The translations under genes were made by a program, and so were the position numbers. Of a stretch of 64,000 bases of DNA, positions 1,048 to 49,207 are shown in pieces (position 1 is the first letter of the stretch; each line of letters opens with the position of its first letter). The notes below the pieces were generated by a model that had not been told where the DNA came from, searched no databases, and worked only from the letters and a program-made list of their open reading frames with translations. This DNA comes from a virus (taxonomy: Duplodnaviria > Heunggongvirae > Uroviricota > Caudoviricetes), in IMG/VR virus record IMGVR_UViG_3300032323_004296; one strand, 5' to 3'.

Positions 1048-1470
1048 ATGGAACAACAAACATATGTAGGAATAATAGTAAAACATAAGGAGAAATGTTT
1101 ATTATGTAAAAGAAATAGTAAAGGTTCATACCCTGGTATGTGGTCTATACCAGCAGGTAAATTAGAAAAAGAAGAAGATACCCTCGAAGGTGCAAAACGA
1201 GAATTTTTCGAAGAAACTAATTTAGACATTTCTGATAAAGAATTAACCTTCACAGGTATTCTTCCAAGACATACGAGAGACGGTAAAAAAGTTAAGGGAA
1301 GAATGTACACATACGTTCTAAACACCGACAAACAAATACACCCTGACTTGGAAAATGCTTCGGATGGTGATGAACATTCTGAGTGTAAATATTTTACAGC
1401 AGAACAAATGGACGAACTTTCTACGGGAACACATTTATACAAATTACTTCAAATTATTTTGGGTAAATAA
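1048..1470 (+). CDS. NUDIX hydrolase
   Basis: Nudix box GAKREFFEETNL (Gx5Ex7REUxEExGU pattern) in ORF 997..1470. The start was moved to the internal Met of MEQQTYVGIIV. Confidence 0.8.
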   Translation: MEQQTYVGIIVKHKEKCLLCKRNSKGSYPGMWSIPAGKLEKEEDTLEGAKREFFEETNLDISDKELTFTGILPRHTRDGKKVKGRMYTYVLNTDKQIHPDLENASDGDEHSECKYFTAEQMDELSTGTHLYKLLQIILGK

Positions 1471-1823
1471 TTGACTTTTCGAAAGTAATGTGATATTTAT
1501 ATATCCACACCTGTAAAAAGGTGAACACCCCACAAAAAAAGTTTCACAGGAAAAAATTTGATGAATTGAGAAATTCTTCTTAACTTTGTGAAACAAACGA
1601 GATGGTCAAACATCTCTCCCCTTAGTCCCACGAATTTGGTAGTTTGAGAAAAGTATCGTAGATTTGTGGGACTTTTTAATCGAATAAAGTTCTTTAACAT
1701 ATTGATTCTACCCATGTACAACCAAAGCATGACTTGGATGGTGACGACGGGGAATGGGTAGAATTTCTATAGAGTCTCATCACTTTATATTTACTCTAAG
1801 ACCCTTCGACTTTATATTATATT

Positions 1824-2189
1824 ATGCCATATAAAGACAAAGACAAACAAAGAGAAAAAAACAGAGAATATCAAAAAAAACATTATTCTCAAAAAAAAGA
1901 ATATTATTATCAGAAAGCGAAGGACTCTAAACTACGAGTGAAGACCGAATATGAAAATTATAAGAGGACTTTGAAATGTGAAATTTGTGGTGAAAATCAT
2001 CCTGCAACTTTGGACTTTCATCATAGAGAACCTGACCAAAAAGAATTTATTGTTTCAGAAACAATTTGGAGGTGGAGTTGGTCGAGGGTGAAAAAAGAAA
2101 TAGATAAATGTGCAGTTCTTTGTTCTAATTGTCATAGGAAGTTACACTATGAAGAAAAAATGGCGGGCGGAGGGCAAGGTGTCCTGTAG
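1824..2189 (+). CDS. HNH endonuclease (small, Lys-rich N-terminus)
   Basis: Motif CEICGENHPATLDFHHREPDQKEF...CAVLCSNCHRKLH is a classical HNH/zinc-finger nuclease signature. The ORF runs into the tRNA-like sequence before reaching a stop, so the true C-terminus may lie earlier. Confidence 0.7.
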   Translation: MPYKDKDKQREKNREYQKKHYSQKKEYYYQKAKDSKLRVKTEYENYKRTLKCEICGENHPATLDFHHREPDQKEFIVSETIWRWSWSRVKKEIDKCAVLCSNCHRKLHYEEKMAGGGQGVL

Positions 2190-2236
2190 GTCTCATAAGC
2201 CTATTCAGCTTGGTTCGATTCCAAGGCGTCGCAACA
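2163..2236 (+). other. tRNA-like element (anticodon-arm CAT; perfect T-arm), acceptor/D-arm non-canonical
   Basis: Perfect T-arm CTTGG-TTCGATT-CCAAG at 2206-2226. Anticodon arm TAGGT-CTCATAA-GCCTA carries anticodon CAT. The 5' acceptor strand does not pair with the 3' strand (GCGTCGC) and U8 is absent. This may be a degenerate tRNA, half of a split or intron-containing tRNA, or a tRNA-like domain of a larger RNA. Confidence 0.3.
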
Positions 2237-3307
2237 AAAAAAAAGTTTTATAAAAATTTGGAAGTATAAAAAACCTTTCTTAATTTTGTAGAACAATTGA
2301 AGGAAACGGGTTGTAAAGGTCCCTGAAAGGTTTCAGGTCGTAAAAATACCTTTTTCCTTCAAACTTGATAGTTCTTTGATTTAAGATATTGGGCGGTCTA
2401 TAGTCCATAAAATAAACTGTGAAAGCAGTATAAAGTGACCTACCTCGGTTGAAGTAGGTTGCGGCTCGATAGGGGTGTCCTCTGTTGAGCTCGAGTAGAC
2501 AAGCGGGATATCATCGTCCCTGAGTAGCTGAGGGTGACACTGTAGGCGAAATGGAATGATGACCAAGCGATGTGGTTCGTTTGGTTGAGGTGGGAACACC
2601 AATTAGAATAACCCGTAGAACTCTTGCAAGAAATATGGTCATCCAACTATATAATTGCGTGATTCAATATCAGAGTTGACTTAAAACCGAAAGGTATGAG
2701 TTCGTACAGGTGGTGCTGTTGTTCTCCTTAACCTTAGTCTACCAAGACATGAGTTATGAAGTTGACTTAAAGTATGGAGGTAGGGATATCTCAGAGAGTA
2801 GTTCAGTATTTCCTCGTTCAAAAGATGGGGAAGCAGGTTGACGGACCGCTACTTTCCAAATCCACAAACCAATTCATTTGTTAATATGGTTTAACAACTA
2901 ATAATTACAAACGGAAAAGTGTCCGTCAGTTGTCAGTGAAAGGTGACTACATAGTCGTGAAGAGTTCACGGCCGTGAAGGGTCCCAAGCCCGACACGATT
3001 TTTGAAAAAGTTCTCTATTCTCGCAAGGAAGTATTGGTGAGGCATCATCGAGGAGTAGCAAGTATCAAGAGAGTATCTGACAACTCAAGGTTTGATTAAC
3101 CTAATTAATCGTCACTGAGGATTACTTCTCAAAAGGAAGTGGAAACGAAGGGAACTCATAATCCTTTTAAAGATTCTCAAAATAAACTTGTATTCTCAAA
3201 GTTTTTTTAACTAATTGACCCCGTTTGTTTCTACAAATGGGGTTTTTTGTTTTTTTTTTTGGTAGATAAAAAAAATTCTTATATTTTCGTGTCCAAAACA
3301 AGAAAAA

Positions 3308-3865
3308 ATGACAAATGAACAAAGTTATTATTTAGAATTAGCAAAACAAAAATTCAATCAGGATAAGGATACAAATTGGAGTGCAAATTTCACAGATTTT
3401 GCTTGTGAATGTTTTGTAAAACTCCCACCATGTTCTTATGGTTCGAGGATTGCTGAATATTTGAGATTGGAATTGGGTGCAGAAAAAGTTTCATCAAGAC
3501 TTGGTATTGGTGACATTTTAGTTTCTAACACATATTATGAGGTAAAGGTTTCTTTTCTTTCAAGTATTTCGAATAAATGGTCCATTACACACATTAGACC
3601 TTGGCAAAAATTCAACAATTTCATTTTTTGTTTTATAGATTGTGAAAATAATTTCGTACCACAATTCTATGTTATAAATAGGAATTCAATTCATAAATTT
3701 AATACCACACCTATGAATGGTACTTCCAAATCTAACTCAGAAAACGGTAATATCGAAATGAGAACTGATATCGAAAAAGGGTCTGATTCTCATAGGCAAT
3801 TAATCAAACTAAATTTACTTAAAAACACAACATTGGAAGAATTACGTAGTTTCATAAATTCTTGA
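3308..3865 (+). CDS. hypothetical protein (possible PD-(D/E)xK-like motif GDIL..YEVK)
   Basis: 185-aa ORF with no overlap. Weak D...EVK nuclease-like motif. Confidence 0.5.
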   Translation: MTNEQSYYLELAKQKFNQDKDTNWSANFTDFACECFVKLPPCSYGSRIAEYLRLELGAEKVSSRLGIGDILVSNTYYEVKVSFLSSISNKWSITHIRPWQKFNNFIFCFIDCENNFVPQFYVINRNSIHKFNTTPMNGTSKSNSENGNIEMRTDIEKGSDSHRQLIKLNLLKNTTLEELRSFINS

Positions 3866-10090: not shown

Positions 10091-10126
10091 AACCCCCCCC
10101 CCAAAATAGGGGGGATTTTTTATTTG
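10091..10126 (+). terminator. rho-independent terminator
   Basis: C10 stem, AAAATA loop, G7 stem, then ATTTTTT. Confidence 0.7.
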
Positions 10127-48679: not shown

Positions 48680-48705
48680 AATTTGATTGGTTCGAAAATA
48701 CTTCA

Positions 48706-48713
48706 TACCTTTG
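48706..48713 (+). promoter_or_regulatory. -7 promoter element TACCTTTG upstream of tRNA-Phe
   Basis: TAnnTTTG lies 60 nt upstream of the tRNA. Confidence 0.4.
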
Positions 48714-48773: not shown

Positions 48774-48849
48774 GGTAGCGGTAGCTCAGTTCCGGTAGAG
48801 CAACATCCTGAACAGATGTGTGCCAGAGGTTCGATTCCTCTCCCTACCA
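48774..48849 (+). tRNA. tRNA-Phe (anticodon GAA)
   Basis: D-arm TAGCTCAGTTCCGGTAGAGC. Anticodon arm ACATC-CTGAACA-GATGT. T-arm AGAGG-TTCGATT-CCTCT. Acceptor GGTAGCG/CCCTACC with one mismatch and one extra nt before U8, so needs tRNAscan confirmation. Confidence 0.6.
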
Positions 48850-49207
48850 CGAAATCTTCGGAATTTTTTCTGAACTTTCATCAAAAGATTTGGTTGTTTG
48901 TAAAAACTTACTTATCTTTGAAATAACAGGACAGCGGAATGTTTATTATAGGTGGTTCCCCATACTCACCTTACCCATATTCTTCTCCGCTTTATAAATT
49001 AGAAACTAATGGTTAAATAAACACGGGCAGTTTGTGAGAGTGGTCATCTCGGTCTTACTGTAAAAGACAAAACTCACCAAGTCTCTTTTTTCACTCTGGT
49101 TCGTTTTCACAGACTTAAAACAAGAAAACAGAAGTACGTCCTACTTCACGGGTTTCAGAGATTGACCCACCACAAAACAACTCAAAACTTGTCCTGACGG
49201 GGACTTC

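Follow-up and report, generated by a model that had tools for sequence, protein, structure and literature searches.

GOLLD RNAs are among the largest bacterial and phage RNAs lacking an assigned function and were recently shown to form RNA-only cages, which hold 10 to 14 copies in the members solved to date (PMC12286853). One of these, env-38, is a GOLLD from a marine metagenome that is encoded downstream of a Met-tRNA, and cryogenic electron microscopy (cryo-EM) revealed it as a 14-mer cage (PDB 9MEE) (Kretsch et al., 2025; PMC12286853). The occurrence of GOLLD with tRNA arrays and HNH genes has also been documented (PMC6582537). The Mycobacterium copies lie in arrays of about 30 tRNAs, and some are described as having a tRNA or pseudo-tRNA in their linker (PMC6582537; Morgado et al., 2020, in the account given by PMC12286853). 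The locus considered here occupies positions 1471-3300 of IMG/VR record IMGVR_UViG_3300032323_004296 (Caudoviricetes), which was analysed as a stretch of 64,000 nucleotides referred to below as the window. This region is very probably a non-coding RNA (ncRNA) locus of an uncultured phage with two transcription units on the plus strand, the upstream one comprising a conserved hairpin (motif A), an HNH gene and a tRNA-Met-type gene, and the downstream one comprising GOLLD.

Like the tRNA-array GOLLD of Mycobacterium, the locus combines GOLLD, tRNA genes and an HNH homing endonuclease and is of phage origin (PMC6582537). Unlike it, the window has a single upstream tRNA-like gene and no tRNA in the linker, and its lineage appears to infect Bacteroidota. 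The locus is one more example of an RNA class already on record, and its setting (tRNAs plus HNH) is of a known type. In the literature consulted, the boxA leaders before GOLLD, the two-allele tRNA-Met slot with a conserved irregular acceptor, and motif A seem not to have been described previously. The relatives used throughout are viral contigs, given L numbers where they must be told apart, which were retrieved by a GOLLD-derived DNA pattern and by the neighbouring DUF192 protein.

A full-length GOLLD RNA at 2391-3206

At curated thresholds, the scan of the whole window against Rfam gave a single strong non-tRNA match. This was to GOLLD (RF02032), at 2794-3202 on the plus strand, with 313 bits against a threshold of 150 and with model positions 1-416 of 416 covered. 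The RF02032 model represents the conserved 3' half of GOLLD only. The sequence of env-38 (Supplementary Table 4 of Kretsch et al., 2025; PMC12286853) could be aligned end to end with window positions 2391 to about 3206 (816 nt), and 505 of the 789 aligned positions were identical (64%). Since this alignment starts at 2391, the 5' domain of GOLLD is also present, and the copy is full length. Its two domains are as follows.

2391-2793, plus strand: GOLLD RNA 5' domain; aligns with env-38 residues 1 to about 420 and has a covarying consensus fold
2794-3206, plus strand: GOLLD RNA 3' domain, including a variable A/U-rich linker at about 2870-2917; matched by RF02032 and by the env-38 alignment

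The 5' domain, of about 400 nt, is the less conserved of the two and is homologous to the corresponding part of env-38 and to six other loci. In an alignment of seven sequences (the window, env-38 and five viral contigs), its consensus fold contains 123 pairs, and changes on both sides were found in 72 of them by RNAalifold or in 73 by a separate pair count. Pairing is maintained in 94.8% of cells compared with 38-42% when partners are slid, and the observed values were reached in 0 of 500 shuffles. In the 3' domain few non-standard pairs were found against the Rfam structure. The linker is unalignable among relatives, and ARAGORN found no tRNA in it.

An earlier, sequence-only reading of the region had noted a GC-enriched core, and G+C is indeed 0.40-0.44 over 2251-3150 compared with about 0.26-0.35 in the flanks; over the GOLLD stretch it is 0.415, against 0.327 for the whole window. 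The same reading had likened the motif GGTCTATAGTCC to group I intron S elements. The motif is present at 2395-2406, but it is not an S element; it forms one strand of the closing helix of the 5' domain, in which GTCTAT (2396-2401) pairs with GTAGAC (2495-2500). A large phage ncRNA near the tRNA and HNH genes, of GOLLD or HEARO type, had been among the proposals. The GOLLD half of this was borne out by the full-model match and the env-38 homology of the 5' half, whereas HEARO gave no match. When the recommended Rfam comparison was made, the group I, group II, HEARO and ROOL families were without a match at E <= 1 in 1400-3400 and at gathering threshold across the window. The picture of one large structured region of 1.8 kb holds only for 2391-3206; the rest, with the stems at 1600-1770, consists of separate elements.

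The resemblance to env-38 includes the two-domain architecture, the variable linker, the identity of about 64%, the Met tRNA-type gene upstream and the loops that make intermolecular contacts in the env-38 cage (PMC12286853). When located by sequence context, the contact loops kept in the 5' domain are GAAA (2419-2426) and GGAA (2589-2600), together with the kissing-contact loops AUCC (2641-2644) and GGGAU (2783-2787). Those kept in the 3' domain are CAAAAG (2819-2824), CGCAA (3021-3026), GGCA (3041-3044) and GGAAAC (from 3141). Its homology with env-38 leads us to expect that this GOLLD RNA adopts the two-domain fold and self-assembles into a closed multimeric cage. Two points weigh against carrying the comparison over in full. 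The env-38 sequence was recovered from a PDF as 815 nt rather than 833 nt, so that residue numbering is off by 2-18 nt and contact residues had to be mapped through local context rather than residue number. Moreover, the GGGAU loop is GGGAG in many relatives, so exact base-pairing of the kissing contact is not uniformly kept.

There are also differences from env-38. A hairpin with a GAAA loop (P11a) is much shorter in the window (CCGAAAGG, 2687-2694) than in env-38 (GGGGAAACCCC). A deletion specific to the window was considered and rejected, because all six relatives have the short form with the GAAA loop kept. The tRNA-like gene upstream of GOLLD has an irregular acceptor and an adjacent HNH gene in the window. 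Finally, the cage of env-38 was observed, whereas that of the window is predicted by homology.

Replacement of a tRNA-Met gene by an HNH gene and a variant tRNA-like gene

Upstream of GOLLD the region is poor in open reading frames (ORFs), as had been noted. The one credible ORF, and the only one longer than 77 aa between 1471 and 3300, encodes a 121-aa HNH protein. It belongs to a segment with the following features.

1768-2227, plus strand: segment that takes the place of about 83 nt in L046/L050 (blastn, alignment)
1824-2189, plus strand: HNH endonuclease gene, 121 aa, free-standing (PHROG 3106/2255); the last 10 or so codons run into the tRNA-like gene
2163-2233, plus strand: tRNA-Met(CAT)-like gene with an irregular acceptor (6 bp and bulged G2228); ARAGORN call at 2160-2233, and fold

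The HNH protein matches PHROG 3106 (1.1e-28) and PHROG 2255 (1.7e-28) and contains CEIC...HH...CSNCH in its translation; its score against Pfam PF01844 is 20.7 bits, just under the cut-off of 21.4. Homologues were found at 28 viral loci, several of them between tRNA genes and sometimes overlapping the next tRNA as in the window. Such placement is a habit of free-standing homing endonucleases. A further homologue (63% identity) lies beside the NUDIX gene in L121, where no GOLLD or tRNA was detected.

The comparison with relatives lacking the HNH gene, also recommended, defines the event. L046 and L050 (108 and 112 kb) match the window at 96-97% identity along the stretch that begins with the cobalamin adenosyltransferase gene and ends with GOLLD. 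In place of 1768-2227 they have about 83 nt, made up of a short spacer and a canonical tRNA-Met with a C1xA72 mismatch. In the window, the HNH gene and the variant tRNA-like gene have come in together in place of the canonical tRNA-Met that these closest relatives have. Because near-identical relatives have an intact tRNA-Met, the HNH gene stands free, as an insertion or a replacement, and is not the passenger of an intron, and the tRNA is not split. HNH genes described in phage tRNA clusters are likewise small ORFs between or abutting tRNAs and are present or absent among close relatives (PMC6582537). The window differs from these in that the HNH gene comes with a different tRNA allele and replaces the resident tRNA-Met. 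In L082 and L198, the slot of the HNH gene, between motif A and the tRNA-like gene, is occupied by a conserved ORF of 67-71 aa (…FKDLNEVKNQIDYWEKHEGVNWLGKWARSIRLERLY…), which suggests an insertion hot spot.

The tRNA-like gene lies 157 nt upstream of GOLLD. The description of tRNA-like arms with an unclosed acceptor stem was accurate: ARAGORN calls a tRNA-Met(CAT), and the acceptor falls short of the usual 7 bp. The Rfam tRNA score is 21.7 bits against a threshold of 29, although its D, anticodon and T arms and its CUCAUAA loop are of canonical form. Seven distinct variants of this odd gene were found in other phages, most without an HNH neighbour. Across them, the D, anticodon and T stems change compensatorily while the CUCAUAA loop is invariant. 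The irregular acceptor (5' GCGGGC / 3' GC-G-UCGC) is common to the variants, with one compensated change, from G.U to A-U, in L146. In L056, L135, L146, L200 and L203 the gene directly follows motif A without an HNH gene, and its acceptor is equally irregular. A pattern search of viral contigs with the anticodon arm returned unrelated normal tRNAs only. The occurrence of the odd gene in phages without HNH also weakened the suggestion that insertion of the HNH gene had harmed the tRNA at its 5' end. Compensated stems and an acceptor kept in seven variants therefore tip the balance, though not decisively, towards a tRNA-like RNA that is non-canonical yet conserved and away from a recent pseudogene.

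Other readings of this segment differ in how well they withstand the comparison. The HNH ORF lies in ORF-poor, stem-rich sequence, which had suggested a group I or group II intron, or its remnant, carrying a homing endonuclease. That is now barely credible: no intron family appeared in the Rfam scan of 1400-3400, the structured part is accounted for by the 313-bit GOLLD match, the 96%-identical relatives without HNH have a plain tRNA-Met with no exon-like flanks, and HNH relatives stand free between tRNA genes. A split or intron-containing tRNA, with its 5' acceptor strand upstream of the HNH gene, would explain why the acceptor stem lacks canonical closure, and GUGACG at 1741-1746 could pair with CGUCGC at the 3' end of the tRNA. 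It is nonetheless highly improbable, since GUGAC lies within the invariant core of motif A, an element that adjoins many different tRNAs, since the five HNH-less relatives just named have an equally irregular acceptor, and since near-identical relatives have an intact tRNA-Met where the window has the HNH gene and the odd tRNA. Less easily dismissed, though still unlikely, is a decaying, functionless pseudogene damaged when the adjacent HNH gene landed. The sub-threshold Rfam score would fit this, as would the HNH stop codon inside the tRNA-like gene and the failure of ARAGORN to find the L056 and L082 copies. Against it stand the seven variants, which come from different phage lineages and keep their stems by compensation, a pattern of purifying selection, with loop and irregular acceptor retained and most copies lacking an HNH neighbour.

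Motif A and the boxA-like leaders

The long stems reported upstream of the HNH gene were both confirmed. The 8-bp stem AGTCCCAC/GTGGGACT is the base of an 11-of-12 inverted repeat described with the leaders below. The 11-bp stem is a perfect inverted repeat, the fold of 1700-1770 has z = -2.6, and the hairpin was named motif A.

1705-1764, plus strand: motif A, conserved hairpin RNA motif; closing stem 1705-1715/1754-1764, core CAACCAAAGCATGACTTGGATGGTG at 1719-1743

Motif A is a hairpin of about 60 nt in which a variable closing helix carries a near-invariant 25-nt apical domain, CAACCAGNGCAUGACNUGGAU(A)GGUG. It occurs without the HNH gene in L046, L048, L056, L076 and L082, where the core is invariant and the outer stems are different yet complementary; for this reason the hairpin was rejected as a part of the HNH insertion. 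A scan of IMG/VR found the core CAACCANNGCATGACNTGGAT in 101 viral-contig stretches, representing 60 distinct neighbourhoods. In an alignment of 26 apical sequences, the two proposed helices were 91.9% paired, as opposed to 16-44% in slid controls. A variable pair inside the core is A-U in 12 sequences, C-G in 12 and U-A in 2, and the first pair of the flanking helix is U-A in 19, G-C in 4, A-U in 2 and C-G in 1, neither being broken in any sequence, but the alignment includes close relatives, so that these counts overstate the number of independent events. Moreover, native flanks give the closing helix a mean of -15.4 kcal/mol, compared with -9.7 for mismatched flank combinations, and G.U pairs are found on the plus strand only. 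A covariance model built from the alignment identified exactly one copy in the window (54 bits, 1712-1750).

The positions of motif A follow those of tRNAs and GOLLD. In 28 of the 60 neighbourhoods the core is followed by a tRNA-Met, which begins 30-44 nt downstream. In other cases the motif belongs to a tRNA array, with 8-29 nt separating it from the tRNA before and 27-38 nt from the tRNA after, so that it fills a tRNA-sized slot. GOLLD was found 0.6-1.0 kb downstream on the same strand in 19 of 29 distinct loci with enough downstream sequence, and at three further loci motif A comes just after GOLLD. In roughly half of the lineages a T run follows the 3' arm, so motif A may also end transcripts in some contexts. 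In L128 and L157, ARAGORN reported a 'tRNA-???' about 8-9 nt before the motif A core, with its 3' end abutting the closing helix, which in effect makes motif A the 3' trailer of a tRNA-like element there. Pairing between the core (UUGGAUG) and a GOLLD loop (CAUCCAA) was considered and dropped, because the variable motif A position did not covary with the GOLLD loop across 33 loci.

In the other collections searched, motif A was all but absent. Rfam 15 gave no match even at E <= 10, and 50,697 GenBank phage records yielded chance partial matches only. In 185,579 species genomes, 15 pattern matches were obtained, equal to the chance expectation; one of them was real and lay on a phage-like contig. 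The core sequence was not found in a full-text literature search. Small stable RNAs that are not tRNAs are encoded in phage tRNA clusters, as with the 'species 1 and 2' RNAs of phage T4. Motif A is similar in occupying tRNA-sized slots in arrays, from which it would be released by processing of the neighbouring tRNAs. To our knowledge, there is no sequence relationship between motif A and the T4 RNAs, and motif A differs from them in its near-invariant 25-nt core and in being found only in uncultured viral contigs. On these comparisons we lean, by a little, towards motif A being the founding example of a so far undescribed class of small phage RNA, found in tRNA-sized slots and in the tRNA-Met/GOLLD leader of about 100 uncultured viral contigs.

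Both transcription units are preceded by leader elements, and a terminator follows GOLLD.

1557-1588, plus strand: promoter-like site of Bacteroidota type (TTTG-N20-TAACTTTG); pattern match, kept in relatives
1624-1673, plus strand: hairpin, inverted repeat of 11 in 12 (1624-1635/1662-1673) with the 8-bp stem at its base, then UUUUU
1635-1666, plus strand: second promoter-like site, inside that hairpin; pattern match
1689-1699, plus strand: boxA-like element GTTCTTTAACA; perfect match to GYTCTTTAANA
2257-2288, plus strand: promoter-like site (TTTG-N20-TAATTTTG) for the GOLLD transcript; pattern match, kept upstream of GOLLD in relatives
2297-2362, plus strand: leader hairpin GAAGGAAA.../...TTTTCCTTC; inverted repeat, fold z = -2.1
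2371-2379, plus strand: boxA-like element GTTCTTTGA, 20 nt before GOLLD
3217-3255, plus strand: intrinsic terminator, 12-bp stem then T run

Matches to the Bacteroidota-type promoter pattern TTTG-N19-21-TANNTTTG number 18 in the window, where 2.4 +/- 1.6 are expected, and three of these sites are in the 1471-3300 region. Several matches elsewhere, for example at 10123, 29619 and 29679, have a common extended form, TTTGG..(T/A)TGAGAAA..TATCTTTG, and a tRNA-Phe at 48774-48850 is bracketed by two such sites (48682-48713 and 48889-48920). A sigma-70-like promoter, TTGACT-N17-TATATT/TATTTA, follows closely on the NUDIX gene at 1471-1505, and it is kept at the corresponding position in L012 and L013.

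Each boxA-like element has a hairpin before it, in the order found in rRNA leaders. Around the upstream hairpin, the fold of 1595-1685 has z = -5.3, and its outer stem is kept in L012 and L013; it is a candidate boxB-like leader hairpin, attenuator or operator. The stem of the hairpin at 2297-2362 differs in sequence among relatives while its complementarity stays. The boxA consensus GYTCTTTAANA is that of Baniulyte et al. (2017; PMC5725501). In relatives, GTTCTTTAACA is kept just upstream of the motif A hairpin or the tRNA. The second element fits the consensus at 9 of 11 positions (2371-2381), and its form has been called boxA upstream of CRISPR arrays, including AGTTCTTTGACATGTTGAAA in Bacteroidetes (Stringer et al., 2020; PMC7665894, supplement). 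Of 51 distinct loci, 50 have an element of this type in the 130 nt that precede the GOLLD 5' end. In some it lies at -19/-20; in the others, with one exception, it is 57-94 nt upstream and a further hairpin intervenes. This conserved hairpin of about 60 nt (…TATTATCCGTTCAGGATGTTGATGATGAGACCTTCGGGTTGATTCTGAGATAACTGATAAAGATA…) is present in L048, L052, L056, L065, L103 and others and absent from the window, and it may be an optional 5' extension of GOLLD. A promoter, a hairpin, a GYTCTTTAANA-like boxA and a long untranslated RNA are also the succession seen in the leaders of rRNA operons and CRISPR arrays (PMC5725501; PMC7665894). For GOLLD or phage tRNA leaders, no prior report of boxA was found in the literature consulted.

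Several observations count against this account of the leaders. The second element departs from the gamma-proteobacterial consensus at position 8. The 9-mer GYTCTTTRA is not enriched across the window (7 against 4.4 expected), so it is the conserved placement of the element from locus to locus that argues for boxA. A host in Bacteroidota is probable, with the promoter motif as the sole basis for proposing it. Finally, the boxA assignment, like promoter use, transcript ends and processing, is read from the sequence and from nothing else.

These conserved elements could be understood differently. The GTTCTTTRA elements might be another leader signal, such as a processing site or a promoter-proximal element, rather than a Nus-factor boxA. 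The absence of overall enrichment makes this a possibility to be kept in mind, but we consider it the less probable one: the element at 1689-1699 is an exact fit to the consensus, the second resembles published Bacteroidetes boxA calls, the hairpin precedes boxA as it does in the leaders of rRNA operons, and conservation of the element at 50 of 51 loci contrasts with flanks that vary. Motif A, for its part, might act as DNA, for instance as a homing-endonuclease target or a recombination site. A 25-nt core that is near-invariant across diverse contigs would suit such a site, as would the mobile ORFs directly after it (HNH in the window, the small ORF in L082/L198). This is decidedly doubtful in view of the covarying stems with fixed loops, the restriction of G.U pairs to the plus strand, the constant orientation with the flanking tRNAs and GOLLD, and the filling of tRNA-sized array slots. 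An RNA-level motif A and Nus-type boxA elements are accordingly the readings preferred.

Genome context and proposed working of the locus

Adjacent to the RNA locus, positions 133-1470 encode a PduO-type cobalamin adenosyltransferase (Pfam 2.9e-55), a DUF192 protein (minus strand) and a NUDIX hydrolase. The DUF192 and NUDIX genes accompany the RNA locus in synteny across dozens of contigs, and a module of DUF192 (minus), NUDIX (plus), leader, tRNA-Met and GOLLD is common to many viral contigs. The DUF192-NUDIX-tRNA/GOLLD module is also seen in jumbo or huge phage contigs (L056-L063, L097 and L121, all of 317-326 kb; LR745206.1, 634 kb). A megablast search with 24.7 kb of the window gave no match that would identify a near-identical known phage. 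The GOLLD relatives are viral contigs with a tRNA-Met or tRNA arrays nearby. In L007 (1240-5672) and L009, GOLLD lies inside an array of 23 tRNA genes, and a tRNA starts 19 nt after the GOLLD 3' end. In three viral contigs Rfam placed a transfer-messenger RNA (tmRNA) about 1-1.5 kb from GOLLD (L002 4608-5023, L005 1671-2066 and L008 1668-2064, minus strand).

The comparisons above show the identity and limits of GOLLD, the covariation, the synteny, the allele replacement and the conservation of boxA and motif A. A working scheme can be proposed for the two units, in which the functions given to the odd tRNA and to motif A, as well as promoter use, Nus recruitment, transcript processing and cage formation, are inferred. 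Unit 1 (about 1557-2240) would be transcribed from one or both promoters at 1557-1666 and would contain the leader hairpin, boxA, motif A, the HNH mRNA and the tRNA-like RNA. With the HNH gene and the variant tRNA in the tRNA-Met slot, the HNH mRNA would therefore ride on the tRNA promoter. Motif A and the tRNA-like RNA would owe their ends to tRNA-processing nucleases. Unit 2 (about 2257-3255) would start from the promoter at 2257-2288, continue through the leader hairpin, boxA and the 816-nt GOLLD, and stop at 3217-3255. In both, boxA may recruit the NusB/NusE antitermination complex of the host, which would let the untranslated tRNA and the 0.8-kb GOLLD escape Rho and fold co-transcriptionally, as rRNA does. 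GOLLD would then fold into its two domains and multimerise into a cage.

The locus adds a full-length env-38-like GOLLD from a lineage rich in syntenic relatives, which is useful for comparative work. The boxA leaders of this GOLLD clade point to Nus-factor-assisted transcription and folding. Any of the leads presented here (the boxA leaders, the two-allele tRNA-Met slot and motif A) could help to identify the targets of GOLLD cages. If motif A is a new class and the leaders conserved at 50 of 51 loci are boxA leaders, GOLLD would be made in an rRNA-like, Nus-assisted ncRNA production line with a dedicated small-RNA companion.

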